In this document: one piece after another, positions 3,323 through 62,598 of the stretch
Layout: the number at the start of each line of letters is the position of its first letter
How positions within the stretch are numbered: the first letter of the stretch is position 1
Assembly: GCA_021372575.1 (NCBI GenBank)
Contig: JAJFUE010000152.1
Location: 1,995 to 65,994 of the forward strand
Direction: 5' to 3'
DNA: 64,000 nt
Source of the DNA: a bacterium
Lineage (GTDB): Bacteria > Sumerlaeota > Sumerlaeia > MVZB01
The notes under the pieces: model-generated
Databases searched by the model: none
Seen by the model: the letters and a program-made list of their open reading frames with translations, nothing else
What the model was told of the DNA's origin: nothing
Position numbers and translations under genes: made by a program

Positions 3323-5233
3323 TTAATAGCCGGTTCCCGACATCCTGTTGCTTCTGTCCGGGATCATTTTGATGTCGAGCGTGACGGTGGTTTCGTCGGG
3401 TTTGACGAGGCGCGATTCAAACGTTTTGTAGCCGGGCGCGATGAACTTATAACGGCGCAGGCTGTCGTCGAGGATGCGGTGCCGGAAGACGCCGCCCATG
3501 CGGTCGATGAGAGGCCCATGCGCGTAAGCCCAGGCCAGGTCACCGGAATTATCGTTATGAATTTCGGCGATGTTGACCTGAAAGGAATCGATCGGCTTGC
3601 CGGTTTGCGCGTCGGTGACGCTGGCCGTGACGTCCGTGTAAGGCTCGAGCGTAAACGTGTGCGTCACTTCGTTGGAAGCCTTGATCGCGACGTGCCTCGA
3701 CCGGTAGCCGGGCAGCATGATCCAATATTTTGTCTCGCGATCGGTGATTGAATCGCGGACCAGATAACCATTCTGATCCGTCTTGGCCCGGTCGCGGAAT
3801 TTGTCTCCGTCCGGGAACCGCATGAAATGAGAGATCGGCGGGTTGCCCGGCGAATCCACCGTGTCCGCAACGCCGACCTCGGCATTCGCAATGCCGCGTC
3901 CCTGCTGATCGACGACGCGAATGCGAAGCGTGTGGCCCGGTGACATTCTGAACTCAACCGGCGGATTGCCGGCGCGGATGCTCTTGAGCCACTGGAACGA
4001 CGGGGCAAAACCTTTCGCATATGCCGTCATGTAGATTTCGTGTTCGGTTTCGACCGCGTGCGCAAATCGAAACTCGCCCCTGGCGTCCGTCCTGAAGCCG
4101 GCAAAGCCGGGGAGCATGACCTGCGCGTTTTCAATCGGCGCGCCGGATTCATCGATAACATGCCCCTTGAGCTCGACGCCTGTTTTGACGACACATTGAG
4201 CATTCTGCGCCAGCAGCTCCGATTCCGTCGGCATGGCGTGGCCGAAAGCATAATCGGGGTGAGCGGCCGCGAGGCCGTCGAGATGATACCAGCGCGGGAA
4301 CTCGTCGAAATGCCAGCGGCCATCCGCGCCGGTCTCGGCGTAAAACGTGCCGCCGCCTTTCACCGCGTTTTCACCCGCGCGCGCGTCTTCGCCGCGGATG
4401 TAAAGCCGAACCTTCGCGCCGCTGACGGGCTCGTCTTTTTCGTTCACCACGCGACCGCCGATCCTGACGCCGCGATTCATCTTCACGGTGAACCGGCTGG
4501 GAATTGGATCTTCTCCAAACGTATTGCGCCACTCGCCGTCCATCTGAACATGGCCGGCGGCATGAACTTCGAACGAAAACCGATAATTCCCGGGCGGCAA
4601 AACGAGCCGGTATTTTCCGTTGCCGATGTGGGCGGCGGGCCGTTGGTCCCAATCGGCGTAGGCCTTGAATTCGGCGTTCGTGATCGGCTTGCCGGTGGAC
4701 GCATCGATCACCTCAATCGTCATCGTGCGCGTGGTGCTGTTTTCGATCGGGCTCGCGACGGGAGCCGGCGTGTTGGAGATCCGTTTTTCAGGCGGCGGCT
4801 TGCGCGCGGTTGTTTGTGTGGTCGTGGCGGTCACCGGGCTCGGGAACAGCTCGATGTTTTCGATCTGCGAGCGATTCAGACTGAAGGCCACTAAGCCGCG
4901 CTGGTGCACGCGGACCACTTCGCCCTTGACCCACGCCTCGCAGTCCTGAATGACGTGCCCGTTCTTTAGGTGGATCGTGACGCGGCCGATTTTGTGGACG
5001 GCATCTTTTTCGGGGGCTTTCTCGAGCGCTTGGAAAAGCGCTTCGTCCGGCTGGTCTGGTGGCTCGCCGACAATCGTCGCGGCGCCGGCAGTCGATACCG
5101 AAATAATCAATGCGACGAAGGTGAATACCGCGGTCAAGCGCTTCACGGCCCCATCCCCTTTCGGCGACAAGAAACGTGCCCGCCGCTGTTGCCGGTTACC
5201 AGATGATATAGTCCGGAATCGGCGAATTGCCAA
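3323..5233 (-). CDS. Secreted hypothetical protein with repeated beta-sandwich (carboxypeptidase-regulatory-like) modules
   Basis: 636-aa ORF. Hydrophobic signal-like segment VKRLTAVFTFVALIISVSTAGA (possible GTG start near 5146). Repeated 'D(A/V)xTGKPI' modules typical of CarboxypepD_reg-like domains. Confidence 0.5.
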   Translation of the reverse strand: MAIRRFRTISSGNRQQRRARFLSPKGDGAVKRLTAVFTFVALIISVSTAGAATIVGEPPDQPDEALFQALEKAPEKDAVHKIGRVTIHLKNGHVIQDCEAWVKGEVVRVHQRGLVAFSLNRSQIENIELFPSPVTATTTQTTARKPPPEKRISNTPAPVASPIENSTTRTMTIEVIDASTGKPITNAEFKAYADWDQRPAAHIGNGKYRLVLPPGNYRFSFEVHAAGHVQMDGEWRNTFGEDPIPSRFTVKMNRGVRIGGRVVNEKDEPVSGAKVRLYIRGEDARAGENAVKGGGTFYAETGADGRWHFDEFPRWYHLDGLAAAHPDYAFGHAMPTESELLAQNAQCVVKTGVELKGHVIDESGAPIENAQVMLPGFAGFRTDARGEFRFAHAVETEHEIYMTAYAKGFAPSFQWLKSIRAGNPPVEFRMSPGHTLRIRVVDQQGRGIANAEVGVADTVDSPGNPPISHFMRFPDGDKFRDRAKTDQNGYLVRDSITDRETKYWIMLPGYRSRHVAIKASNEVTHTFTLEPYTDVTASVTDAQTGKPIDSFQVNIAEIHNDNSGDLAWAYAHGPLIDRMGGVFRHRILDDSLRRYKFIAPGYKTFESRLVKPDETTVTLDIKMIPDRSNRMSGTGY

Positions 5234-6473: not shown

Positions 6474-6899
6474 TTACCATAGACGCGCGCCGTTCCCACT
6501 CTTTTTGCCCAAGCTTGCACCAAATACCTGCAAAGTTCTTTGATGCAAGTACCGCTGAACATAAGAATTGATCGTGCCATCGGGGTATAAAATACGGCTT
6601 GCAATTAATGCATCCAATGCTTTTCCGGTGCGTGATCCCGCTCCGGGAATTCTCGCCAGAAGGTCGTCACGCGAATACGTGACTTTAGACCAAAGCCAAG
6701 CCCATCGGGCTTCATCGCCGGTTGCCTTGCATGTTTTTGGATTTCCCACACGCTTTATTTCCACGCCTGCCCAACACAAAATAATTCGAATAAGCGCGGC
6801 GTTGCCGACAACCATGAGGACTGATTCAGGTTGTTCGCCACTTTTGAACTGCTCAAGAATGCGATCGAATACAGGTTGTCTCACGATGTCCTCTTTCAT
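6474..6899 (-). CDS. Hypothetical protein (island cargo)
   Basis: ORF of 141-146 aa. The start at 6899 overlaps the upstream stop by 4 nt (ATGA-type coupling). No recognisable motifs. Confidence 0.4.
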   Translation of the reverse strand: MKEDIVRQPVFDRILEQFKSGEQPESVLMVVGNAALIRIILCWAGVEIKRVGNPKTCKATGDEARWAWLWSKVTYSRDDLLARIPGAGSRTGKALDALIASRILYPDGTINSYVQRYLHQRTLQVFGASLGKKSGNGARLW

Positions 6900-10315: not shown

Positions 10316-10391
10316 TGGTGGGTCATGTAGGACTCGAACCTACAACCAACAGATTAAGAGTCTGCTGCTCTACCAATTGAGCTAATGACCC
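10316..10391 (-). tRNA. tRNA-Lys (anticodon CTT), 76 nt including the encoded CCA
   Basis: The reverse complement GGGTCATTAGCTCAATTGGTAGAGCAGCAGACTCTTAATCTGTTGGTTGTAGGTTCGAGTCCTACATGACCCACCA folds as a cloverleaf. Anticodon loop CTCTTAA. Confidence 0.9.
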
Positions 10392-12114: not shown

Positions 12115-13527
12115 TTACTTGTATTCCCACTTGCGCACGTCGATGAAGTGGCCGGTCACGGCGGCGGCGACGGCCATGGCGGGGCTCACGAGGTGCGTGC
12201 GGCCGTCCTTGCCCTGGCGGCCTTCGAAGTTGCGGTTGCTGGTGGCCGCGCAACGGTCGCCGGGGTTCAGGCGGTCCTCGTTCATCGCGAGGCACATCGA
12301 GCAGCCCGACTCGCGCCACTCGAAGCCGGCCTCCTTGAAGATCCTGTCCAGGCCCTCGGACTCGGCCTGACGCTTGACCGCCTGGCTGCCGGGCACGACG
12401 AGCGCCTGCTCGATCGCGGGATGCACCTTGTGGCCCTTGGCGACGGCGGCGGCCGCGCGCAGGTCCTCGATGCGCCCGTTCGTACACGAGCCGATATAGA
12501 CCTTGTTGATCTTGATCCCGGTGATCGGCGTTCCCTCGTCGAGGCCCATGTAGGCCAGCGCCTTCTGCGCCGCGAGCCGGTCGTTGGGGTCGGCCAGTTC
12601 GTTGATCACCGGCGTCTGGCCGCTGATCCCGGTCACCATGCCCGGGCTCGTGCCCCACGTCACCTGCGGCTCGATCTCGCCGGCCTTGATGACGACCTCG
12701 TTGTCCCACGTGCAGTCGTGGTCGCTGGCGAACGAGTGCCACTTCTCGACGAGCTTCTCGAAATCCTGGCCGGCCAGGTACTTGCGGCCGCGCAGGTAGT
12801 CGAACGTCGTCTGGTCGGGCGAGATGAGGCCCGCGCGCGCTCCGGCCTCGATCGCCATGTTGCAGACGGTCATGCGGCCTTCCATCGAGAGGTCGCGGAT
12901 CGCCTCGCCGGTGAACTCGATGGCCTGGCCGGTTCCGCCAGCGGTGCCGATCTTGCCGATGATCGCCAGGATCAGGTCCTTGGCCGTGATGCCCGCGCCG
13001 AGCTTGCCTTCGACATGAATGCGCAGCGTCGGCGACTTCTTCTGGATCAGGGTCTGCGTGGCGAGGACGTGCTCGACTTCGCTCGTGCCGATGCCGAAGG
13101 CCAGCGCGCCGAAGGCGCCGTGCGTGGCCGTGTGGCTGTCGCCGCAGACGATCGTCATGCCGGGCTGCGTGAGGCCCAGTTCGGGCCCGATCACGTGGAC
13201 GATGCCGCCGAGCGGATTGTCCATGCCGAAGCAGGTCACGCCGAATTCCTTGCAGTTGGCCTCGAGGGTCGCGACCTGCTTGCGACTCATCGGGTCGCGG
13301 ATCGGTAGGTTGCGCGCCGTGGTTGGAATATTGTGGTCCATGGTCGCGAACGTAAGGCCCGGCCGGCGGACCTTGCGGCCGGCGAGGCGCAGGCCTTCGA
13401 AGGCCTGCGGGCTGGTCACTTCGTGGACGTAGTGCCGGTCGATATAGATCAGCGGGTCTTTCCCGTCTTCCTCGTGGACGACATGCGCGTCCCAGATCTT
13501 CTCGTAGATGTTCCTGCCCATGATCAC
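12115..13527 (-). CDS. leuC: 3-isopropylmalate dehydratase large subunit
   Basis: Aconitase-family motifs (VCGDSHT, GSCTNGR, Cys ligands CSMC). Confidence 0.9.
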
Positions 13528-13777
13528 TGCTCCCAGGCGCGAAATAAAATCAATCGGATCATATCAGACCGCCCCGCCCGCGTCCATTGTCAGTTCGTGC
13601 TCGTGCTTGCAATCCAAACCTGGCATAGCCAGAACCAACTGCCCCAGCCATTACCGAGTCATCGTAATCGAATCCCTTTCGTCCGCCCATCCCTCGCTCA
13701 CGCTCGGGCTAGATTGACAAAAATTTTCCGGCAATGCGCCAATCGAGATGGTTCCAAGTTTGGCGATTCGATGATGG

Positions 13778-13818
13778 GTTCGATTACGATTACGATTACG
13801 AGCACGAGCACGAACGGA
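13778..13818 (+). repeat. Hexamer-tandem dispersed repeat, copy 1: GGTTCGATTAC(GATTAC)2(GAGCAC)2GAACGG
   Basis: Direct reading of the sequence; member of a 7-copy family (see findings). Confidence 0.85.
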
Positions 13819-13873
13819 CAACTGTCGGCAAGCGCTCTACTGCACCATTCACCATCAACCATTCACCCTTCCC

Positions 13874-16800
13874 CTACAGCGGCTTGATTTCCGGATTCTC
13901 CGTCGTGCCCTTGACCTGCGCGCGAATCACCTTGCCGACCAGTTGGTTGATCACCTCGACCGCGGTGCCGAGGAGCGGCACGCCCTCCACAATCTGGAAC
14001 ACCTGCGCCGCGATCTGCAGGTCGAGCGTCTTGTCGAACCCGACCGACCCGCTGAGCTTCAGGTTGATGATCGGATTGTCGAACACCATCGCCGTGCTGT
14101 GGACGCGGTTGTTCTCGATCGTGACCGGCCCGTGAACGGTCGAGAACGAAATGTCCTCGAGCAGCGGCAGCTTGAGCAGCCCGCCCAGGCTGTGCAAGAT
14201 CGCGTTCGACACCAGCCGGCTTTGCTTGATCGTCACCTGCCCCTGTCCGTTCACCTGGTCCTTCACGCGGAAATCTTTTTTAACCTCGAGCCGGCCGGTC
14301 ACGACGCCGGAGAAAATGCCGCCCGGCTTTTGTTTTTTGCTCAGCGCCTCGGAGAGTGGCCGCAGCTCGACGTCGCGCGTCTCGAACGATGCCTCGAGCC
14401 GCCGGCTATAGACCGACCCGCTGAGGTCCGCCTTGCCGCCATAGACCGACGCCTGCGACAGGTACCAGCGCACCATCGCCGGCAGCCCGCGGAAATCATC
14501 CACCGTCAGGATGCCGTCGATGTCGCCACATTCGATCCCCTTGCACGAACCCGTCCGTGTCTTGAACGTGCCGCGAATGCTGAACGACGGCTTGAGGTTC
14601 GGGTTATACGGCTTGTCCGCCGGAGGCACCAATTCGGGCAGGTTTTTCGGCCGCCTGGCGTTCCATTGCCCGAGCCACGGCGTGAGGTCGAAGTGCTCGC
14701 CGGTCACGCCGAAGTTCAGCGTCCCTTCCGGGTTCGGCGGCATCGTCCACGTGATCTCGAGCGACGACTTCACGTTGCGCGAGCCGATGGGCGTCACCGC
14801 CAGCGGCTCGGGCGACCACAGCCGCCCCTGGTTGTAATACACCATCCCCGTGATTCCCTTGAGCGGCGTCGGCATGCGCCAGAACGTCATCTCGCCGTCG
14901 CGCATCCGGATGATCCCGTCGAAGTCCCAGCGCCAGTCCGCCACCAGTTGCGGCACCATGTGCGCCTCGTCGTGCAGGCCCGTGAAGTAATCGGCGAGCG
15001 CCGGCCAGCTCGTCGGCGCCTTGAATCCGGGTCGCGGCTCGATTTTCTGGTGATGCTCGATCGTCGCCGCGCCGGCGACCGTGAACAGCTCGAGCCCCGG
15101 CGGCGACCGCCGCTGCATCTCGGGCAGCTCGCCGTCGAGCTTCAGGTTGACCAGCCCGCCGCCCGGCTTGAGCACGCCTTCGGCCGAGACATCGACGCCG
15201 CCGAACTTGCCGCTTGCCGGCTCGATGCGCAGCTCGTCGCCCTTCAGCTCGAGCCCGAGGCGCTTGAATCGCAGCGGCCCGTTCACGCGCGCAATCGTGA
15301 AGCTCGTGCTGAAATCATCGACGTCGATCCGGCCGCCGGTCTCGAGCTTGCGCCAGTCCGCCAGCGGGCCGGCGACGCTCACCCTGGCCACCGCATTGCC
15401 GCCGAAATCGCTGAACCCGAACCGCCGCGGATTGGCCCCGTAGCGATGCGCCTGCGCCAACGCGTTCGCCAGCGACGTGGCCGCCTCGATCTTCAGGTCG
15501 GCGCGCGGATTCACCCACGGCTCCGGTTTGCCGCTCAGCGTGCCGTCGATCGTCACGCGCCCGCCGAGTGTTTCGCCCGCCAGCTTCTCGAAGCGCAGTG
15601 TCCCGTTCGACCAGCCGATCCGCCCGCCGACGCCGCTGACCTGCGGCAGCTTCCCTCCGCGCATGCTGCCTTTATTCACCGACAGTTGCGCGGTGACATC
15701 GGGGCGCGTCCCGTTCTTTTTTATTGTACCGCGCCCTTCGAAGTCGCCGTGGATCACGAGCGGCCCCTCGACGCGCGCCAGCGCGAGCGTCGTCGCGAAA
15801 TCCTTGAGGTTCACCGAGGCCTGGACCGGCCGCGACCGCCAGTCGGCCAGCGGCGCGTTTTTCATCTGGATCTCGAACATGCCCGACCCGGCGACCGGCG
15901 GCAGCGGCTCGATTGGGCGCCCCGTCGCCGCCGCGAGCTCCATGACCTGGTCGGCGATCGCCGGGAGCTCACCGCCGATCCGCGCATCGACCGTGAGCGT
16001 CGGCGACGACCACAGCAGCCGCTTCCCCGCCATCGATCCGCTCAGCGAAAGCGCCGTCGAGCCCATGCGCCCTTCGATCCGCCCGGCGCGCGCCTCGTTC
16101 GGCGCGAGGTCGATCCGGCCGTTGATTCCCGTCACCGGCGCCGGCAGCCGCGCGTCGCGCAGGGTCACGTCGCGGAAGCGAAGCCCGCCGTTGATCTCCG
16201 CGCGCGCCAGCGACGCCACGATCCCTTCGCGGGTTGGCTCGGCCAGCGTCAGCGTGCCGCTCCCGTTCAGGTCGCCCGTGAACGTCGGCCCGGCCACGAT
16301 CGGCCCGTCCGGCTTGGCGGTCCCGCCGGTTTTCCAGTTCACCCTCAGGCCCTCGACCGAGCGCGGCAGCGTTCCCGTGGCGACACCGTCGATCTCGATC
16401 GGCAGTCCGCCGTAGCGGCACGCGAGCCGCTCGACGCGCAGCGTCCCGGTCGTCATCTGCACGCGCCCGGAGATCGCGCGCACCGGCAGCGGCAACTTCG
16501 CCGACGCCACGTCGATCCCCCACGCCTGCCCGTTCAGTTCAATCACGTCCGGCGCGAGCAGGATCGATTCGCCCGCCGCCCGCCCGGAAACCTCGATTTT
16601 TTCAAGCCCCGTCGGGATCAGTTCCATGCCGTATCCGGGCAGCACGTGGTCGGCGATCAGTTCCACGTCGCCCATGCCGGCCGTGAACCGCTGCGCGCGC
16701 AAATCGTACGGCCACGGCGACTGCGTCCCGGCCCATCCCGCCAGCCCGATCGAGGACAGCGGCGTGCTGACGACGAGCCTGTCGATCTGCACGCGCCGGC

Positions 16801-22728: not shown

Positions 22729-22756
22729 GGTTTCGATTACGAGCGCGAGCACGACC
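22729..22756 (+). repeat. Hexamer-tandem dispersed repeat, copy 2 (short: GGTTTCGATTACGAGCGCGAGCACGACC)
   Basis: Direct reading. Intergenic, between two minus-strand genes. Confidence 0.7.
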
Positions 22757-22764
22757 GGGGATGG

Positions 22765-25467: not shown

Positions 25468-25502
25468 AGTCCTGAGTCCTGAGTCATGAGTCCTGAGTGC
25501 TG
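25468..25502. repeat. Heptanucleotide simple-sequence repeat (AGTCCTG x5, two units imperfect) immediately 3' of the Lon-N gene
   Basis: agtcctgagtcctgagtcatgagtcctgagtgctgagg. Confidence 0.8.
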
Positions 25503-25593
25503 AGGCTCGGTCCGCTTTTTACTCAAACGATTCCCTTTCCATGTCGGTTGTGTTTTCGGCGATAATAGTTTGATTATTTAACCGAGGCGTGAC

Positions 25594-26337: not shown

Positions 26338-26504
26338 CAATCCTGAAAGAATATGGATATTTCTGCCGCTTCTTCAGGCCTCTCTGCATCACCCATCAAT
26401 TGTGAATCAAAATCGAAAAGTACTTTTGTCCACATCTGTATGTGAAATCTTGTCTTTTTATCGTTCATCATTCATCATTCACCATTCCAAGCGGGAGTCG
26501 CCTT

Positions 26505-27257
26505 ATGAGGCCGTGCTGGTTGATCGGAATGATCGCGCTCATCCTGATGCCGCGCGCGGTTGCCCAGTTGCCTGAAGCAACTACTTACACGCTCCCGCGC
26601 TTGAATGCGCTGCCGAAGGCGAAAGTCGTCCGCACGATCGACGGCGACACGATCGATTTGAAAATCGGCGGCAAGATCGAGAGTTGCCGTCTGATCGGGA
26701 TCGACACGCCCGAGCTGAAAGGCGACGCGGAGAAGACGTTTTACGGCCGCGAGGCGGCGTGGTACACGTTCAACCTGCTCGCGGGGGAGTCGGTGTGGTA
26801 CGAGGCCGATCCCAAAATGGCGCGCGACACGTTCGGCCGGCTGCTCGTGTTTGTGTACCGGGCACCGGACGGGCTGTTCGTGAACCTGGAGCTGATACGG
26901 CTCGGTTACGCGCGCGTTTATGAATATGAGCATGCGCGCGCGGGATTGTTCAAAGGCTATGAGGCGCGTGCGCGAGAGGCCAAGAAGGGTTTGTGGAATC
27001 CGACCCTGAAGAATGAGACATCGAAAGCCGCCGCGAATTCGAACGCCCAGACCGCCGCACCAAGACAAACCGTATCGGCATCGACCGGCGCAGCGGCCGC
27101 GAGCCCGGGAAACGACGCCGATACTGTTTATGTCACCAAATCAGGGAAGAAATATCACCGCGCCGGATGCCGATCGTTGAGCAAAAGCAGCATCCCGATC
27201 TCGCTGGCGACGGCGAAGGCTCGGAGGCTGCAACCGTGCAGCGTGTGCAAACCGTAG
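26505..27257 (+). CDS. Thermonuclease (SNase / micrococcal nuclease-like) family protein with a C-terminal Cys/His zinc-ribbon-like tail
   Basis: Signal peptide MRPCWLIGMIALILMPRAVA. VVRTIDGDTIDL...CRLIGIDTPE is the SNase core. C-terminal ...KYHRAGCRSL...CSVC. Confidence 0.7.
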   Translation: MRPCWLIGMIALILMPRAVAQLPEATTYTLPRLNALPKAKVVRTIDGDTIDLKIGGKIESCRLIGIDTPELKGDAEKTFYGREAAWYTFNLLAGESVWYEADPKMARDTFGRLLVFVYRAPDGLFVNLELIRLGYARVYEYEHARAGLFKGYEARAREAKKGLWNPTLKNETSKAAANSNAQTAAPRQTVSASTGAAAASPGNDADTVYVTKSGKKYHRAGCRSLSKSSIPISLATAKARRLQPCSVCKP

Positions 27258-27323: not shown

Positions 27324-27372
27324 GGTTCGATTACGATTACGATTACGAGCACGAATACGAATACGAATACGA
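27324..27372 (+). repeat. Hexamer-tandem dispersed repeat, copy 3: GGTTCGATTAC(GATTAC)2 GAGCAC (GAATAC)3 GA
   Basis: Direct reading. Abuts the terminator hairpin. Confidence 0.85.
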
Positions 27373-27403
27373 AAAAAAGGCCGGCGATATGCCGGCCTTT
27401 TTT
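27372..27403. terminator. Bidirectional rho-independent terminator between convergent genes
   Basis: aaaaaaaGGCCGGCgatatGCCGGCCtttttt. Confidence 0.8.
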
Positions 27404-33460: not shown

Positions 33461-35365
33461 TCATTCGAATATGACGTTGATCTCCGCGATGGCCGCGCCG
33501 AGCGTACGGAAATCGCTGTAGCCGGGCTTGTCCTGCGCGGGCGAATGCACCCAGGACAGCCCCAGCTCGATGCGGTTGTATCCTTTCGTGAGCGCGCCGG
33601 CCGGCACTTGCCAGGTTTGCGTCGAGAATCCCGCCGGCAACGCGCGCCGCTCCAGGAGCAGCGTGCCGACGCGGGGCTGGATCCACTGCGGCGGCCCGCC
33701 GGGCCACTGGAACGGCATGAGCGTGATGCTGAGCCTGGCGGGAGCGGCTCGCAGGAGGGGGAAGTTGAACCAGCCGACGGTGCGCGTGAGCCAGCGCACG
33801 GAAAAATCCTTCGACCACGTCTCGGGCTCGCTCCAGCCCGATCCGAGCAACACCGCGGGGACCCATCCCGGACGGAACGCCGGCGGGTCGCCGAGCGCCG
33901 CCGTGAGCTGGCCCAGTTTTTCGATCGGCGGCGCCTGGGCGAGCGGCTCGATCATGACGCCGCGCACAGTCGCAGTTTTCCCCTGATCGCCGAAGGCCTG
34001 ATCGACGCGCCAGTAGGGCGAGTCGGGCAGGTTTTGCGCGGCGTCGGCGGTGAACAACGGTGCGTTCACGCCCTCGCGATGCAGGTAATATTCAAGCGGC
34101 ACATGCACCAGATGGCTGGTGGCGACGATGCGCTGGCCGGGTTGAACGCGCTCGCGCAGGTAACGGGCCGCCGCGCGCCAGTCCGTTTTCCGATCGCGGT
34201 CGGCGGCGTGGAACGCAAGCATGGCGGCGGCGGCCGCGAGAACGATCGCCGGCATGAGGAACGGACGCCTCACGCGTTCGGCGATCGCCAGCGCGCCTTG
34301 CGCCATCAGCATGCACAGGCCCGGCACGCAATAGATCGTGTAGCGCGAGTAGAACTTGCGGTTGATGAGCGCATAGAACACGACGGCCGCGACCGGCAGG
34401 CCGATCGACCACAGCACGACGAACGCCGCCGCGCGCCGGTCGGCGCGGAAGGCGCGAACCGAGCCGATGAGCACGAAGGCCATTCCAAGAAGCGCGGCGC
34501 CCCATGCCAGAGCCATTTGCGGCTGGGGTCCGGCAAGGTGCTCGGCGATCCACCCGACCAGCATTGCCGGATGGATCGGAGTGAATTTCCAGAAGTATTC
34601 GGAGGGGGTGGGGATATCGACGCGCGAGCGCAGCGGCAAGGCCGCGAGAACGACCACGCCGATCAAAGCCAGAAACCAAAAGAGCGGGCTGAAATCAAAG
34701 CGCCGCCGCTCGAGTGTGGGGGCAATCAGCACAAACAGCAGCTCGCACGCAAGCACCAGCGCGGTTGCATATAATGTATAAAGCGCGACGACCGTGACGA
34801 CGCCCAAGCCGGTCAACCACGCCCACGCGTTTTTTTCGTGCTCGTGCTCGTGCTCGTGCTCGTAATCGTAATCGTAATCGAATACCCTTCCGGCCCTCAC
34901 CCACCACTCCCAAAACAGCCACATCTGACCGATGAGGAGCGCGGTGATCATCGCGTAGGGCCGGGCCTCGCGTGAATAATGAATGAGCAGCGCGTGCGCC
35001 GAGGCCAGCGCCAGCGTCGCCCACGCCACGCGCGATCCGAACAACCTGCGCGCGAAACCGAAGATCAAAACCAGGGTGATGACGCCCGCGATGGCCTCCG
35101 GCAGGCGATGGCTGACTTCCTTCGCGAGCGGCAAGCGGTCGGCAACGGACTGGATGTAATAGTCGAGCGGCGGCTTGTCGCGCGGGATGCGGTTGAGGAT
35201 TTCTGACGGCGGACCCTCGACGATCCGCGCGCTGAAGACTTCGTCGATCCAGAAGCTCTCGCGCCCCAGATCATGCACGCGCAACCAGACACCGATGGCG
35301 AGCAACGCGATGGAAATGCCAATCAGCAACGCGCCGGGTCGGGAGTATGTCGTTTCAGGGTTCAT
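33461..35365 (-). CDS. GT-C fold glycosyltransferase (family 39/83, ArnT/PMT-like) with an in-frame hexamer-repeat insertion
   Basis: ...ESFWIDEVFSARIV... and ...PPLDYYI... are ArnT/PMT_2 hallmarks, in a multi-TM topology. The internal stretch RVFDYDYDYEHEHEHEHEKNAW is encoded by repeat copy 4. Confidence 0.7.
   Translation of the reverse strand: MNPETTYSRPGALLIGISIALLAIGVWLRVHDLGRESFWIDEVFSARIVEGPPSEILNRIPRDKPPLDYYIQSVADRLPLAKEVSHRLPEAIAGVITLVLIFGFARRLFGSRVAWATLALASAHALLIHYSREARPYAMITALLIGQMWLFWEWWVRAGRVFDYDYDYEHEHEHEHEKNAWAWLTGLGVVTVVALYTLYATALVLACELLFVLIAPTLERRRFDFSPLFWFLALIGVVVLAALPLRSRVDIPTPSEYFWKFTPIHPAMLVGWIAEHLAGPQPQMALAWGAALLGMAFVLIGSVRAFRADRRAAAFVVLWSIGLPVAAVVFYALINRKFYSRYTIYCVPGLCMLMAQGALAIAERVRRPFLMPAIVLAAAAAMLAFHAADRDRKTDWRAAARYLRERVQPGQRIVATSHLVHVPLEYYLHREGVNAPLFTADAAQNLPDSPYWRVDQAFGDQGKTATVRGVMIEPLAQAPPIEKLGQLTAALGDPPAFRPGWVPAVLLGSGWSEPETWSKDFSVRWLTRTVGWFNFPLLRAAPARLSITLMPFQWPGGPPQWIQPRVGTLLLERRALPAGFSTQTWQVPAGALTKGYNRIELGLSWVHSPAQDKPGYSDFRTLGAAIAEINVIFE
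34836..34882 (-). repeat. Hexamer-tandem dispersed repeat, copy 4, in frame inside the GT39-like CDS
   Basis: tcgtgctcgtgctcgtgctcgtgctcgtaatcgtaatcgtaatcgaa is the reverse complement of TTCGATTAC(GATTAC)2(GAGCAC)4GA. Confidence 0.85.
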
Positions 35366-35519: not shown

Positions 35520-36164
35520 TTATTGTTCGCTTCTGGTCAATATTTTCACGAACGCGAAGTAGTCCCATGCGCCGTCGCGCGACTTCATGCGGTAGATTTC
35601 GTAGGCGTCCTTCGCCGAGTGCACGGTGCGCTGGCTTGCGACGTGAACGTTGGCGAGCTGGCCGCGCGAAACGAGGTTGAACACCGAATACAACTTAATC
35701 CCCGACGCCTGGTTGAGAGGCAGCAAATCGATCGCGACGGTCGTCAACTCGAGCTCGCCCGGCATGGCGCGCCCCGAGGCCCCTTCGGGATAATACACCT
35801 CCGACATATACCCGCCGAAGTCGCCGTATTTGACCTTGCAGCGCGGCGACATCAGCGTCTTCGCGAGCGGATGCGACTCGAACAGATCGACGACGTCCTG
35901 CGTGACCGGCTTGCCGAGCTCGATCTTCTTGCGCAGGTCGAAGCTCATCTTCTGATACGCAGCCGACGGCAGCGCCAGCAGCTCGATCTCGAACTGCACC
36001 TCGTTGCGGCCGATGTCGTAACGCGCCTTGACGAGCGGGGGCGCGGCGGTTTTTTGCACGGTCGTGGCCCCGGCGGGTTGATTCTGTCCAGTTGCGTGCT
36101 TGCACGCGGCGCCAAGAACGATCATCAGCATCAGGCAATAAACGGCACTCGGTCTTAACCTCAT
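35520..36164 (-). CDS. Secreted hypothetical protein; paralog of the protein at 38542-39198 (GH20-associated pair)
   Basis: Signal peptide. Shared motifs FEIELLALPSAAY / FEIELLAMPTKAY and DYFAFVKILTRSE / DYLVFLKVSQE. Confidence 0.55.
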   Translation of the reverse strand: MRLRPSAVYCLMLMIVLGAACKHATGQNQPAGATTVQKTAAPPLVKARYDIGRNEVQFEIELLALPSAAYQKMSFDLRKKIELGKPVTQDVVDLFESHPLAKTLMSPRCKVKYGDFGGYMSEVYYPEGASGRAMPGELELTTVAIDLLPLNQASGIKLYSVFNLVSRGQLANVHVASQRTVHSAKDAYEIYRMKSRDGAWDYFAFVKILTRSEQ

Positions 36165-38147: not shown

Positions 38148-38184
38148 TTATTGTCCATTCATGCTCGTACTCGTGCTCGTAATC
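38148..38184 (-). repeat. Hexamer-tandem dispersed repeat, copy 5
   Basis: The reverse complement reads ATGTTCGATTACGATTACGAGCACGAGTACGAGCATGAA. Confidence 0.8.
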
Positions 38185-38263
38185 GTAATCGAACATATCA
38201 GCGATTCGACGACCGAGACCTGTTCCGATCAGAAGGGCGTGCCGCCAGCCCCGCAGGGGCAAC

Positions 38264-38406
38264 ACGTTTGTAGCCATGCGATTTTAAAAAGAGCCGAACT
38301 CCGCAGGAGTGGCACGTGATGGGTGTGCCCGATTACGTGCCGCTCCTGCGGAGCTCGGATTTTATTGGCGATCTTTGCTACAAACGTACCGCTCCTGCGG
38401 AGCTGG
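38264..38406. repeat. Roughly 120-bp imperfect palindrome (arms acgtttgtagc...ccgaactccgcaggagtggcacg / cgtgccgctcctgcggagctc...gctacaaacgt) plus an extra direct copy of the 16-mer CCGCTCCTGCGGAGCT. MITE-like element or operator cluster upstream of GH20.
   Basis: Outer 11-mers at 38264-38274 and 38376-38386 are exact reverse complements. Inner 21-mers at 38294-38316 and 38338-38359 match 19/21. Third 16-mer copy at 38388-38406. Confidence 0.6.
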
Positions 38407-38541
38407 CTTGGCGCCGTTATCAAATGCTCATAAACCACGGAATGGCCTGACAACCGGAAAATACTTACATTCGAGACGCGGCGGCGCAAAGAATGCCCTC
38501 TTTGCGTCCCCGCGTCTCGGCGCGATAAAGACCCCGGCTTG

Positions 38542-42116: not shown

Positions 42117-42131
42117 TGGAATTTCAAAAAA

Positions 42132-42170
42132 ATCGTGCTCGTGCTCGTAATCGTAAACGCAATCGAACAC
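42132..42170 (-). repeat. Hexamer-tandem dispersed repeat, copy 6 (degenerate); forms an inverted pair with copy 7
   Basis: The reverse complement reads GTGTTCGATTGCGTTTACGATTACGAGCACGAGCACGAT. Confidence 0.75.
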
Positions 42171-42257
42171 GCGATCGCATGGAGACCATCATGCCGCATG
42201 GAAGCGAATTCGATTGCGACAAAAAATAAATATGTCGAGCGTTTCAGCGAAGGATCC

Positions 42258-42317
42258 GGATTTTCGATTACGATTACGAGCACGATTACGAGCACGATTA
42301 CGAGCACGAGCACGACG
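42258..42317 (+). repeat. Hexamer-tandem dispersed repeat, copy 7 (longest): GGATTTTCGATTACGATTACGAGCAC(GATTACGAGCAC)2GAGCACGACG
   Basis: Direct reading. Confidence 0.85.
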
Positions 42318-42340
42318 ACTTGCCATGCTTTGCGCCGAAT

Positions 42341-56339: not shown

Positions 56340-56755
56340 ACCGCCCGAAAGCAGCCTCCGCAGGCATCGACCCCATTGGAGAAGCCACGCGCGGGTTGAC
56401 ACTCGGCGCCGATGCCGTTATGTTTTTTACAGAAGGGTGCAAAAGCTATCAAGCTGGCGCAGGAATTCGGATGGTCGGGCCGCCATCCAGTTGATGATGT
56501 CAATTCACAATTGGAGGGGTCCCATGTTTTCCTGGAAAATCCCAAACACCGCCCTTGTCTTTTTTCGCTCTCCACTTCATCCCAAAATGAATAGCGCCTG
56601 TTAATCCTGGGCAAACACCGGGGCGCACGGGGCGTCTCGGTCATAAACATACTTATTTTTCTAATTCGTGCTGCACACGCGGTCGCCTGAATGGACAGCT
56701 GGGTATTGCGTGCCGTGGGTGGGTTGTCGTGTTCGCATGGACGGAGGTCGGCATC

Positions 56756-59246: not shown

Positions 59247-60242
59247 GTGGACATTCCCTCCCGGGAGGCGCAAAGGGCAGGTCCGTTGAGCGAATCCGTC
59301 CAGAAAGTCATCACGCTGGATCACGACGAGCTGCTCAAGTTCTGCGGCCTGGGCGACCGCAAGCTCAAGTCGATCCAGCAGCGCATCAAGGCCAAAATCG
59401 TCGCGCGCGGCAACGAGCTGCGCATCAACGGCCCACCCTCCGACGTCGATTCCGCCTACACCATGATCACCGACCTCCTTGAAGTCCAGCGCGCGGGCGG
59501 CAAGGCCCTCACCAGCCAGCAGATCCACATGGCCGGCGAGCACTTCGCCGCGGGCCGCCCCGGCGCGATCAAGGAAATCTTCCTCGACACGATCCCGATC
59601 CCGCTCAAGCGCAAGCAGGTCGCGCCGCTGTCGCCCAACCAGAAGCGCTACATCGACTCGATCCGCCAGCACGACATCGTGTTCGCGATCGGCCCGGCCG
59701 GCACCGGCAAGACGTTCCTCGCCGTCGCGATGGCCGTGGCCTCGCTCATTAATGGTTCGGTCGGCCGTATTATTCTCGTCAGGCCGGCGGTCGAGGCCGG
59801 CGAGCGGCTCGGGTTCCTGCCGGGCGACATCGAACAGAAACTCAACCCCTACCTGCGCCCGCTCTACGATGCGCTCTACGAGATGCTCGACCCGGAGAAA
59901 ATGAAGTCCTACATCGAGGACGGCATCATCGAGATCGCGCCGTTGGCGTTCATGCGCGGCCGCACGCTCAACAACAGCTTCATCATCCTGGACGAGGCGC
60001 AAAACACGACGATCGAGCAGATGAAGATGTTCCTCACGCGCCTCGGCCTCGACTCGCAGGCGGTCATCACCGGCGACATCACCCAGACCGACCTGCCCAA
60101 GGGCCAGGCCTCGGGCCTCGTGCACGTGCGCAAGATCCTGTCCCACATCGACGGCATCGATTTCATCGAATTCACCGGTCGCGACGTCGTGCGCCATCAA
60201 CTGGTGCAGCGCATCATTCAGGCCTACGAGAAACATGGCTAA
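59247..60242 (+). CDS. phoH: PhoH-like ATPase (phosphate starvation-inducible protein family)
   Basis: KH-like N-terminal region. ...[16 protein letters not shown]... Walker A. ...FIILDEAQN... Walker B. Confidence 0.8.
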
Positions 60243-62598
60243 CGCACCGCAACCCACCCTGCGCCTCGACGAAGCCGGCGAGCCGCGCCGGCTTGGGCCC
60301 CAGCCGCTGCTGCGCCGCTGGCGCGCGCGACTGACCGCCCTTGCGTGGTTCGTCCTCATCGTGCTCGTGCTCGGGCCGTTCTTCCGCGAACAGCCGTACC
60401 CGACAACCCCCGGCCAGGTCGCGCGCGCGCGCATCCCCGCGCCGCGCAAGGTCGAGGTCAGCGACCCCGAGGCAACCAACGCGGCGCTCAACAATCTCGC
60501 CACGCACCAGACGCAGATCTGGCAGCGCGACGTCAAGGCCGAGGAGCGCATCCAGCAGAACCTGCGCTCGTTCTTCGACGACCTGAGCCGGCAGGGCGAT
60601 CAGCTCCGCAGCATCGAACAGCTCAAGACGTTCGCCGACTCCGAGCTCGCCACGCACAACATCGCCATCGACATCAGCACGATCCAGGCGCTGCTGGCCG
60701 CCCCGACCGGCCCCGACCCGATGACGCTCAATGCCATCCAGCGCGAACTGCGCCTGATCGTGATCAACGCGCTGTTCGACTGCGGCATCGTCTCCAACCG
60801 CGGCGACTACAAGGCCGAATCGAGCGCCGGCGTGCTCAGGCTCATGATCGGAGGCGAGGAGCAGAAGAAAATCCCCGAGCCCAACCTGGTGCTCGGCTGG
60901 CCCGAACACACGCGCAGCGAACTGGCCAACGCCATCGAGGCTCGCTTCTCGACGCGCGATTCGCGCCGCGCCCTGCGCCAGGCGTGCCTTGACCTGCTGA
61001 TGTCGATCCTCGAGCCGAACATCGTCTATGACCCGATCGCGACGCGCAAACTGTATGAAGAGCAGCGCGCCGGGCTCCTGGCCCAACCGATCAAGAAGAC
61101 GTTCAACCGCGACGAGCCGATCGTCGAGCAGGGCGCGATCATCAGCCCGCTCGAGGCCGAGGCGCTCTCGATCCTCGAGGCGCAGCGTCACCAGACGATG
61201 GCGCTCAAATACCTGGGCCTCATCTCGATGACCGCGATTTTCTTTGCCGCGATCGCCATCTACCTCAAGCGGTTCCGCCGTGAGTTCACGCTCGATGCAT
61301 CAACCATCACGCTGCACGTTCTGCCGCCGATGGTCGCGCTCGTCGTCGGGCAGGTCCTGCTCATCTGGCAGGGCCAACCGACGCACACCGTCATGATCTG
61401 GTTCCCGGCGGGCCTTGTCGGCATGCTGTCGTCGCTGCTGATCGCGCCGCAGGTCGCGTTCGTCCTCGTGCTGACGACGGCGTGCCTGTTCGGCTTCTCC
61501 GCCGCGCTGCCGCTGCAGTTCATGATCATCGCGCTGTTCGGCGGGTTCACGGCCGTGCTGGCAAGCCGCAACATCCGCAGCCGGCTCGACATCCTGAGCG
61601 TTGGCATGAAGGTCGGCGTCGTCAACATGGTCGCGCTCACGATCATGGCGCTCGCCGACCCCAACTGGCTCGTCTCCGACGGCGGCGCGAGCTCGATGAC
61701 CCTGTACGCGCGGCTGCTGGCGAGCGGATTCCTCAACGGCATCGCCTGCTCGCTGGCCACGCTCGTCTTGCTCATCATCTTCGAGTGGAGCTTCGGCATC
61801 GTGACCGACCTGCGCCTGCTCGAGCTGACCGGCATGAAGCACCCGCTCATCCGACAGCTCGAGGCCAAGGCCCCCGGCACGTACCAGCACACGCTCAACG
61901 TCTCCAAGCTCGCCGAGGCCGCCGCCGAGGCGATCGGCGCCAACACGCTGCTCGTGCGCGCCGGCACGTATTTCCACGACGTCGGCAAGATGGTCAAGCC
62001 GAAGTATTTCAGCGAGAACCAGGTGACGCTCGACGACAAGAAGGCGCACGCGCGCCTGTCGCCCTACATGAGCGTCCTCATCATCAAGAACCACGTCAAG
62101 GAAGGCCAGGAGCTGGCGCGCGCGTTCGGCCTGCCGCAGAAGATCATCGACTTCATCCCGCAACACCACGGCACGGGCCTCATTCGCTATTTCTACCAGG
62201 AGGCGCTCAAGCGCTACGAAAACAGCGAGGCCGTCGATCCGGTGCGCGAGGAGGATTTCCGCTACCCCGGCCCCAAGCCGCAATCGATCGAGGCCGCAAT
62301 CGTCCTGCTCGCCGACTCGGTCGATGCGATCGCGACGAGCCGATTCACCGGCGCCCAAGTCAACGAGAGCGAACTGCGCCGCCACGTGCAGCTCGCGATC
62401 GGCGAGAAATTCAACGACGGCCAGTTCGACGAGTGCAACCTGACGATGAGCCATCTCTATCGCATTCGCGAGGCGCTCGTGGCCGCGCTCATGGCGCGCT
62501 TCCACTTCCGCATCGCCTACCCGACGCCGCCCAAGCCCCCGAGAGAAGCCGCCGCCGCGCCGACGCAGATCACGGTCTCCGGCCCCGGCGGAAGCTGA
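60235..62598 (+). CDS. 7TM-receptor with intracellular HD hydrolase (PgpH/YqfF-like HDIG phosphodiesterase)
   Basis: N-terminal extracellular region, 7 TM helices, C-terminal HD domain (...YQHTLNVSKLAE...GTYFHDVGKMVKP...). Overlaps phoH by 8 nt, the usual phoH-pgpH arrangement. Confidence 0.75.
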   Translation: MANAPQPTLRLDEAGEPRRLGPQPLLRRWRARLTALAWFVLIVLVLGPFFREQPYPTTPGQVARARIPAPRKVEVSDPEATNAALNNLATHQTQIWQRDVKAEERIQQNLRSFFDDLSRQGDQLRSIEQLKTFADSELATHNIAIDISTIQALLAAPTGPDPMTLNAIQRELRLIVINALFDCGIVSNRGDYKAESSAGVLRLMIGGEEQKKIPEPNLVLGWPEHTRSELANAIEARFSTRDSRRALRQACLDLLMSILEPNIVYDPIATRKLYEEQRAGLLAQPIKKTFNRDEPIVEQGAIISPLEAEALSILEAQRHQTMALKYLGLISMTAIFFAAIAIYLKRFRREFTLDASTITLHVLPPMVALVVGQVLLIWQGQPTHTVMIWFPAGLVGMLSSLLIAPQVAFVLVLTTACLFGFSAALPLQFMIIALFGGFTAVLASRNIRSRLDILSVGMKVGVVNMVALTIMALADPNWLVSDGGASSMTLYARLLASGFLNGIACSLATLVLLIIFEWSFGIVTDLRLLELTGMKHPLIRQLEAKAPGTYQHTLNVSKLAEAAAEAIGANTLLVRAGTYFHDVGKMVKPKYFSENQVTLDDKKAHARLSPYMSVLIIKNHVKEGQELARAFGLPQKIIDFIPQHHGTGLIRYFYQEALKRYENSEAVDPVREEDFRYPGPKPQSIEAAIVLLADSVDAIATSRFTGAQVNESELRRHVQLAIGEKFNDGQFDECNLTMSHLYRIREALVAALMARFHFRIAYPTPPKPPREAAAAPTQITVSGPGGS

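Follow-up and report, generated by a model that had tools for sequence, protein, structure and literature searches.

What is a tandem repeat that normally lies between genes doing in frame inside the gene of a membrane glycosyltransferase, and does the peptide it encodes serve the enzyme? The question is raised by a stretch of 64,000 nucleotides (positions 1,995 to 65,994 of contig JAJFUE010000152.1, assembly GCA_021372575.1, GTDB lineage Sumerlaeota; Sumerlaeia; MVZB01), referred to here as the window and numbered from its first letter. A 48-nt array of hexamers in this window lies within a glycosyltransferase open reading frame (ORF) and is translated as Asp-Tyr pairs followed by Glu-His pairs. 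With a probability of roughly 0.65, we favor the reading that this DY/EH stretch is a passenger copy of a normally intergenic array, TCGA-(TTACGA)n-(GCACGA)m, that is tolerated in a gene of the GT-C class. The two features in question are the following.

34836..34883, minus strand: intragenic hexamer array (direct sequence, Tandem Repeats Finder [TRF], pattern scan, translation)
33461..35365, minus strand: host gene, encoding a 634-residue GT-C glycosyltransferase (Pfam, NCBI name, AlphaFold, Foldseek)

Read directly from the plus strand, the array is (TCGTGC)4(TCGTAA)3TCGAAT, that is, eight hexamers with the sub-blocks (TCGTGC)4 at 34836-34859, (TCGTAA)3 at 34860-34877, and TCGAAT at 34878-34883; TRF reports two perfect period-6 arrays at the same positions. 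On the minus strand it becomes an ATTCGA cap followed by (TTACGA)3 and (GCACGA)4, with all units perfect. The ORF translates through it as ...WWVRAGRVFDYDYDYEHEHEHEHEKNAWAW..., and the 16 codons at 34835-34882 yield F162-DYDYDY-EHEHEHEH-E177 (residues 162 to 177), containing 4 His, 8 Asp/Glu, and 3 Tyr. In context, the peptide is found as ...WWVRAGRV-FDYDYDYEHEHEHEHE-KNAWAW.... Of the six possible readings of the array, one includes TAA and one is a hydrophobic VL/VI repeat; the frame in use, [D/E][Y/H], is hydrophilic and stop-free. An earlier note on this DNA had described an in-frame repeat copy inside a GT39/ArnT-like gene, which sequence, TRF, translation, and Pfam all confirm. It had also called this the only intragenic copy, and that holds for the canonical arrays of the window, the other six being intergenic once genes are placed by Pfam. 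A look-alike, TCGTGCTCGTGCTCGGGC, occurs at 60359-60376 inside a 7TMR-HD receptor gene (60235-62598, plus strand), where it reads IVLVLG in the N-terminal transmembrane helix; it has two GC-type units only, with neither TCGTAA units nor a cap, and is probably a codon coincidence (VLVL) rather than a second intragenic copy.

The arrays of the window are real and not a product of base composition, since the degenerate pattern TCGTRMx3 (one mismatch or fewer) gives 28 overlapping matches here versus 0.01 expected from shuffles. Besides the intragenic copy, they comprise the following.

13778..13813, plus strand: GTTCGA(TTACGA)3(GCACGA)2, intergenic (pattern scan, Pfam gene placement)
22737..22760, plus strand: TTTCGA TTACGA GCGCGA GCACGA, intergenic, degenerate (pattern scan, Pfam gene placement)
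27325..27372, plus strand: GTTCGA(TTACGA)3 GCACGA (ATACGA)3, intergenic (pattern scan, Pfam gene placement)
38159..38194, minus strand: GTTCGA(TTACGA)2 GCACGA GTACGA GCATGA, intergenic, upstream of the GH20 gene (ORF start 38089)
42133..42156, minus strand: left arm of an inverted pair, intergenic, 17 nt after the PP2C stop (42116)
42262..42315, plus strand: right arm of the inverted pair, intergenic, 26 nt from the cation-efflux gene stop (42341)

The intragenic copy and the six intergenic arrays all share the cap NTTCGA, both units, and the order of TT before GC. Judged by these three features, it is a bona fide member of the family.

This family is not lineage-specific and occurs across many phyla. 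The junction 18-mer TTACGATTACGAGCACGA is present, as an exact match, in at least 95 stretches of a species-representative genome collection, where about 17 matches to an 18-mer would arise by chance in 596 Gb (arithmetic), the match at locus L070 looking like one such case. Among the matches listed, it is carried by Sumerlaeota, Planctomycetota, Acidobacteriota, Riflebacteria, Hydrogenedentota, and Nitrospirota (Nitrospiraceae), and further by Verrucomicrobiota, Kiritimatiellia, Victivallales, Desulfobacterota, Fibrobacterota, and a few Bacillota and Bacteroidota metagenome-assembled genomes (MAGs). The carriers include long-read complete MAG chromosomes as well as one isolate, Planctomycetales bacterium ZRK34 (CP050848.1, L089). 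In viruses the 18-mer was found in 4 of 2.9 million contigs.

The family statistics rest on 161 arrays from 96 loci besides the window, again among the matches listed. TTACGA accounts for 46% of the units and GCACGA for 34.5%, with positions 3 to 6 (ACGA) nearly invariant. The first unit is usually NNTCGA, and TT units precede GC units in 100 cases versus 2 in reverse order. Units whose base changes would leave a DY/EH translation unaltered (TTATGA, GCATGA, and CTACGA) each make up less than 1% of units, and because they are so rare, the constraint, as judged from unit frequencies, is on the nucleotides and not on the peptide. Arrays can also differ in length at a fixed site: the orthologous Planctomycetota MAG loci L030 (~6635-6733) and L042 (~943-1011) have near-identical flanks, with (GTACGA)5 in the former versus 1 unit in the latter and (GCACGA)2 versus 1, and arrays therefore gain and lose whole hexamers.

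Genes around the arrays were called heuristically, by a procedure whose calls in the window agreed with the gene map verified by Pfam. By these calls, 129 of the 161 arrays are intergenic and 11 fall in the first 40 codons of over-extended ORFs; 5'-over-extended genes covering arrays include those for RecG, Pgk, DnaB, a metallo-beta-lactamase (MBL) hydrolase, and an ankyrin protein. Elsewhere, none of the apparently internal arrays that we inspected held up: each was a chance match or lay in a spurious ORF or a 5' extension. Long ORFs running across arrays were rejected as candidates on the same grounds, as spurious frames in high-GC DNA, genes over-extended at the 5' end, or chance matches (L070, L048, and L024). 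Of about 140 genuine arrays examined, the window copy alone lies within a validated gene. It has the units and the polarity of the family and departs from it in location.

Where arrays lie in spacers between co-directional genes, both orientations are found (31 versus 27). Sense (TTACGA) arrays tend to lie near the downstream start, commonly at 11 to 43 nt, and are often followed by a Shine-Dalgarno (SD)-like GGAG; antisense arrays tend to lie near the upstream stop, commonly at 4 to 35 nt. One array of a Sumerlaeia relative, for instance, stands 17 nt upstream of the ATG of PDH E2, directly before GGAG. The intragenic copy has the sense orientation, as in the arrays just upstream of start codons, and on direct reading it has no start codon or SD sequence 3' of it. 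For about 30% of arrays, a partner in inverted orientation lies no more than 150 nt away.

Within Sumerlaeia, we observe a sub-family with conserved flanks (window 13706-13840; L011 1-127; L084 5478-5612; L043 2109-2243; L064 4285-4419). The upstream motif is TTGACAAAAGTTTTCCGGCAAT and the downstream motif ACCGATAACTTTCGTCAAGCGCTCTA, an imperfect reverse complement of the former, so that the flanks look like terminal inverted repeats or a stem around the array. A consistent fold for this sub-family was considered and rejected, as the minimum-free-energy structures disagree between copies. Across phyla, flanks are not conserved, and only the arrays and their inverted copies recur. The intragenic copy is bare, without the partly inverted flanks that are conserved in the Sumerlaeia sub-family.

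Several other properties were looked for in the family. No recurrent neighbor gene that might act as mobilizer or partner was found beside the arrays, Rfam 15 gave no match on any array at gathering score or at an E value of 5 or below, and literature queries with repeat strings and keywords returned no description of these hexamers. A role as sigma-70 promoter was rejected, as a scan gave no site at any array, although TACGAT resembles the TANNNT -10 element. Complementarity of UUACGA to 16S rRNA (1495-1500) and a likeness of the cap to a tRNA T-loop were also considered, and no claim is based on either. We likewise rejected small-ORF peptides in the DY/EH, LR/AR, and TI/TS frames: many copies have no in-frame start or stop (L001, L084, and window 13778), synonymous unit variants are rare, and the LR-frame pattern of five Sumerlaeia copies does not generalize. 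A protein-database query with a synthetic (DY)4(EH)4 sequence returned three ORF calls of 32 to 47 residues only; it missed P0001 and is thus uninformative on large proteins. These three public "hypothetical proteins" (P0160, P0161, and P0162) are array translations (e.g., MRREIVDYDYDYEHEHEHEHEKRS...) and probably gene-calling artifacts.

The host protein has the same sequence as NCBI entry MCE5230784.1, which is named "glycosyltransferase family 39 protein [bacterium]" and forms a singleton cluster, and it matches Pfam PMT_2 (PF13231) with 45.9 bits (cut-off, 26.1; E, 9e-12). Its AlphaFold model, built with 63 homologues, has a mean pLDDT (predicted local distance difference test) of 93.5 and a predicted template modeling score (pTM) of 0.92 and comprises 11 long helices, predicted to be transmembrane (TM), followed by a C-terminal beta-sandwich domain. 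The top Foldseek matches in the PDB are ArnT (5F15, 5EZM), AglB, PglB, STT3, Pmt, and Aft, with a probability of 1.00. The PMT_2 match, the GT-C fold of the model, and an acidic motif in the first extracytoplasmic loop all place the protein among GT-C enzymes, with GT39 and GT83 as candidate CAZy families. Columns W39, D41, E42, R87, and R135 are invariant across 63 sequences and all kept here. The gene looks intact, and we infer that the enzyme still works.

Its closest relatives are four proteins at 54 to 59% identity; a Candidatus Sumerlaeia MAG encodes one of the four. The locus in that MAG, L001, is syntenic, with a GH20 gene, the PMT_2 gene, genes for proteins of about 350 and about 1070 residues, and a TM2-domain gene. 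The earlier note had held that the repeat adds about 16 residues between two TM helices without breaking the frame, and this is borne out, as a lineage-specific addition. In an alignment of the eight closest homologues, including the four just named, a gap lies exactly opposite FDYDYDYEHEHEHEHE in all others, and the DNA alignment with the L001 gene, which lacks the array, places the extra bases at the array. From residue 150 to Y196, the protein has 47 residues, compared with 26 to 51 (median, ~28) among the homologues in a 63-sequence alignment; the excess over the four closest relatives is 13 to 21 residues, and the array itself supplies 16. Homologous loops carry 2 to 7 Lys/Arg and usually 0 to 2 Asp/Glu, and none of the 62 has a DY/EH motif at this position. 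The note had named, as grounds for giving up the insertion idea, orthologues with a homologous acidic loop whose DNA is not repetitive; such a loop was looked for in these 62 sequences and not found, and the idea therefore stands. For a comparison of (EH)n length between strains, an exact-protein look-up returned nothing, the degenerate DNA pattern had 0 metagenome matches, and a search for related loci returned only relatives at 30 to 32% identity.

The position of the insert relative to the membrane and to the catalytic residues is defined by three features.

34880..34957, minus strand: codons of TM4 (helix 137-162), directly N-terminal to the insert (AlphaFold/DSSP, hydropathy)
34775..34858, minus strand: codons of TM5 (helix 170-197) (AlphaFold/DSSP)
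35240..35245, minus strand: invariant D41-E42 (WxDE motif), first extracytoplasmic loop (alignment, invariant in 63 sequences)

Counting helices from the D41/E42 loop, the chain passes from this extracytoplasmic loop through TM2 to the cytoplasm, through TM3 to the outside, and through TM4 back to the cytoplasm. The insert is thus predicted to lie in the short TM4-TM5 loop on the cytoplasmic face, opposite the catalytic face of D41/E42, because helix parity and the K/R-rich loops of the homologues (positive-inside rule) agree. The prediction thus favors the cytoplasm for a loop that the earlier note had left between cytoplasm and periplasm. In the GT-C enzymes ArnT, PglB, and STT3, catalytic and metal-binding residues face the extracytoplasmic side. 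The only dip of pLDDT in the TM region covers residues 161 to 180 (60 to 78), between helices 137-162 and 170-197, and the EH part of the insert is modeled at pLDDT ~60 to 78 as a cytoplasmic helical extension at the start of TM5. Within this region of the alignment, conservation is lowest and length varies most in the TM4-TM5 loop, which in other family members tolerates up to about 50 residues. This marks it as a permissive site of this GT-C family that may be useful for tagging and engineering.

These observations can be drawn together as follows. A bare copy of an array would have become coding sequence, translated as a 16-residue acidic/aromatic/His linker in the TM4-TM5 loop. The copy could have originated from another array through recombination or ectopic copying, and slippage may or may not have followed. 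Four circumstances would make it tolerable: the 6-nt unit equals two codons, and whole-unit number, gain, or loss would keep the frame; orientation and phase give the hydrophilic, stop-free [D/E][Y/H] repeat; the loop is the part of this region that varies most in sequence and length; and it is predicted to be cytoplasmic, with the catalytic residues on the other side of the membrane. The peptide would then be a by-product, because the constraint on the family is at the nucleotide level and its normal habitat is intergenic. The earlier note had proposed a tolerated insertion by a mobile hexamer array. We keep the tolerated family copy, recognizable by cap, units, and order, and find no support for "mobile": the family occurs across many phyla, the flanks of the intragenic copy (GGGTA before TTCGA and AAAAAAC after GCACGA) show neither terminal inverted repeats nor a target-site duplication, and no mobilizing gene recurs near arrays.

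Some points weigh against the passenger reading. The same lack of target-site duplications, terminal inverted repeats, and a linked mobilizing gene leaves nothing to explain the copying. No empty-site or intermediate allele is available from a close relative, the insertion being deduced from relatives at 59% identity or less, and the topology is predicted rather than measured. That this is the sole validated intragenic case of about 140 fits the expected rarity, yet it leaves room for a special role. The perfection of all units could reflect either a recent event or selection. Finally, the sense orientation shared with start-proximal arrays leaves room for an RNA-level role in the mRNA.

Selection on the peptide is what the earlier note had suggested in its second proposal, a functional metal-binding (EH)n loop: the cell would have put (DY)3(EH)4 to use as a metal-binding or regulatory loop in the cytoplasm, possibly length-tunable, like the His-rich loops of metal transporters. 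The composition resembles known His/acid-rich cytoplasmic loops, the EH part is modeled as a helical extension of TM5 and not as pure coil, and the units are all perfect; in addition, residues 91 to 177 give a weak NCBIfam match to the nickel/cobalt efflux protein RcnA (E, 0.006), which at 15.8 bits against a cut-off of 195 is far too low and composition-driven. We consider such a loop rather unlikely. The motif is conserved in none of the 62 homologues, it is coded by perfect repeats that are unit-for-unit identical to intergenic arrays, and the family lacks the synonymous variation expected of a selected peptide; moreover, the catalytic and metal residues of GT-C enzymes are extracytoplasmic, whereas the loop is predicted to be cytoplasmic. 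The nucleotide-level conservation across many phyla could instead mean that the array acts as nucleic acid within the gene, as an mRNA or DNA platform for a factor that recognizes the intergenic arrays, with the peptide incidental and with translation, decay, or transcription of the operon as candidate effects. Sense arrays often lie 11 to 43 nt before start codons, followed by the SD-like GGAG, and the intragenic copy is both sense and pristine. This, too, strikes us as distinctly unlikely, as the copy is followed by no start codon or SD sequence and has none of the motifs that flank arrays of the local Sumerlaeia sub-family, the arrays have no known binder or activity, and one intragenic case in about 140 resembles an accident more than design.

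The remaining two explanations deny either the connection to the family or the array itself. A microsatellite could have expanded in place from ancestral loop codons, unrelated to the dispersed repeats, given that hexamers can expand by slippage in frame, that unit numbers change at fixed loci elsewhere, and that the Lys codon following the array may be a remnant of the ancestral loop (several homologues have K/R there). It would, however, have had to reinvent independently two units, their canonical order, and the TCGA cap, matching six arrays in the same 64 kb, where about 0.01 such arrays are expected by chance per window, and homologous loops contain no seed resembling either unit; we regard it as very unlikely. 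Mis-assembly of the MAG at a repeat, or wrongly fused genes, is scarcely credible. The contig does come from a metagenome-assembled genome, and repeats can mislead assembly, but the sequences on either side of the array are of one protein family and collinear with homologues, the whole chain folds as one GT-C domain in the model (pLDDT, 93.5), a 48-nt array is short enough for single reads to span, and arrays of the same kind occur in long-read complete MAG chromosomes and in an isolate genome.

Dispersed short repeats with comparable behavior have been described before. The TAACTGA heptamer repeats of Beggiatoaceae, Cyanobacteria, and Bacteroidetes are abundant and overwhelmingly intergenic, many lying a few nucleotides upstream of start codons; they are found across phyla with no evident transfer mechanism, a minority sits inside ORFs at peripheral or poorly conserved positions, and a role as binding site of a post-transcriptional regulator has been proposed (MacGregor 2015, PMC4679880). 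The hexamer arrays are likewise short, tandem, intergenic, start-proximal, cross-phylum, and occasionally intragenic. They differ in that the TAACTGA unit has 7 nt, keeps the frame only in threes, and in forward orientation has stops in all frames, whereas the hexamer arrays have a 6-nt unit, two units in fixed order, a TCGA cap, and inverted pairs in about 30% of cases and occur in other phyla; there is no evidence that the two families are related. Short tandemly repeated repetitive (STRR) heptamers of heterocystous cyanobacteria reportedly have copies inside the RNase P RNA gene, as Vioque is said to have described in 1997. What they share with the intragenic copy is that a dispersed family of short tandem repeats has a member within a functional gene, at a place where the structure permits it; the STRR are heptamers, restricted to cyanobacteria, and their host gene encodes RNA and not protein.

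Rickettsia palindromic elements (RPE), of about 150 bp, are palindromic and inserted in frame in protein-coding genes (PMC10969869). As with the intragenic copy, a dispersed repeat, here in unrelated genes, is translated in frame as an extra peptide compatible with the fold. RPE are genus-specific and often intragenic, whereas the hexamer array is a 48-nt tandem without a palindrome of its own, cross-phylum, and rarely intragenic (1 of ~140). By analogy, the intragenic copy would work as the TAACTGA, STRR, and RPE cases do, as a tolerated dispersed repeat. It is a member of none of these families, which differ from it in unit length, sequence, architecture, and taxa.

Metal transporters of the RcnA, CDF, and ZIP families carry His/acid-rich cytoplasmic loops as family features, in ordinary codons. 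The DY/EH loop shares with these the alternating His and acidic residues in a cytoplasmic loop of a polytopic membrane protein, but it is found in a single protein and consists of a perfect DNA repeat shared with intergenic sites. In the contingency loci of phase variation, units are usually not multiples of 3 and switch expression on and off by frameshift. The intragenic copy is comparable in that short units repeat perfectly in tandem within a coding region and are likely prone to slippage; its 6-nt unit can only change loop length by two residues, which sets it apart from a phase-variable locus. With no terminal inverted repeat or target-site duplication visible in its flanks, it also does not resemble an insertion derived from a MITE (a transposable element of the miniature inverted-repeat kind) or a transposon.

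As a small case of a dispersed short tandem repeat absorbed by a protein without harm, the intragenic copy is of modest scope, and the array family is more surprising than the single gene, spanning many phyla with nucleotide-level conservation, fixed polarity, and a preference for gene starts and stops. As a bare array, devoid of flanking motifs, the copy bears on how such arrays spread. Tentatively, and with more doubt than belief, we suggest that the arrays may be a functional cross-phylum nucleic-acid element with a conserved partner, the intragenic copy bearing on its spread or function. In that event, the arrays might be an (NYA-CGA)n platform for a widely conserved RNA- or single-stranded-DNA-binding factor or the product of an unfamiliar copying mechanism; either proposal is doubtful. 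Were this so, the intragenic copy would be a natural experiment in which arrays enter and survive in coding DNA, possibly keeping an mRNA-level function, and a conserved binding partner would make the family a widespread, previously undescribed regulatory or structural signal.

Tandem repeats of another unit length occur in the same genomes. In the PDH E2 gene of L001, a heptamer array, (AATCCGC)4.6 at 4406-4437, is in frame within the flexible inter-domain linker (..ESAIRNPQSAIST..). Taken with the intragenic copy, this means that short tandem repeats in flexible coding segments recur in the lineage. Heptamer arrays of the window include AGTCCTG x5 at 25468-25504, ATCATTC x4 at 26460-26487, and CACCATT x4 at 13843-13871; those at 13843-13871 and 25468-25504 lie between called genes, and that at 26460-26487 is at the 5' edge of an SNase ORF (26442-27257). 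At 20945-21005 of L001, the heptamers GGAATGC and TCCGAAA are found, and heptamer arrays of this kind recall the STRR sequences of cyanobacteria.

In the host protein, the C-terminal beta-sandwich (33461-34180, minus strand; residues ~396 to 634) resembles CBM6/CBM35 modules, and residues W511, E515, and W517, among others, are invariant among the eight closest homologues; the domain may bind carbohydrate on the extracytoplasmic side. An ORF of 214 residues (35520-36164, minus strand) with a signal- or lipobox-like N terminus and no Pfam match separates the GH20 and GT-C genes. L001 has no counterpart of it, its GH20 and GT-C genes being 93 nt apart.

The intergenic arrays of the window occupy varied settings. 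The array at 13778-13813 has the conserved flanks of the Sumerlaeia type; of its two minus-strand neighbors, a YhdP-like gene stops at 13874 on one side and an aconitase-family gene starts at 13527 on the other. That at 22737-22760 lies about 10 nt past the stop of a gene with a carbohydrate-binding module (CBM) domain and precedes by about 150 nt what is likely the true start of a homocysteine S-methyltransferase gene. The array at 27325-27372 is situated between the convergent SNase (plus strand) and TM2 (minus strand) genes and abuts a bidirectional terminator-like hairpin at ~27373-27403. The inverted pair, between convergent PP2C and cation-efflux genes, folds as a long hairpin (-73.9 kcal/mol, 42126-42325), which may be a bidirectional terminator or a 3'-end stabilizer. 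About 90 nt from the array at 38159-38194, we observe a near-perfect long hairpin with a T-run (38285-38367), which matches a miRNA-precursor model on both strands (E, ~0.004) far below the gathering score; a partial third copy of one hairpin arm follows at 38391-38408, 25 nt downstream. Above threshold, Rfam identifies two RNAs only in the window.

56435-56488, plus strand: nhaA-I riboswitch-class RNA (Rfam, 47.8 bits; gathering score, 37)
10319-10391, minus strand: tRNA (Rfam)

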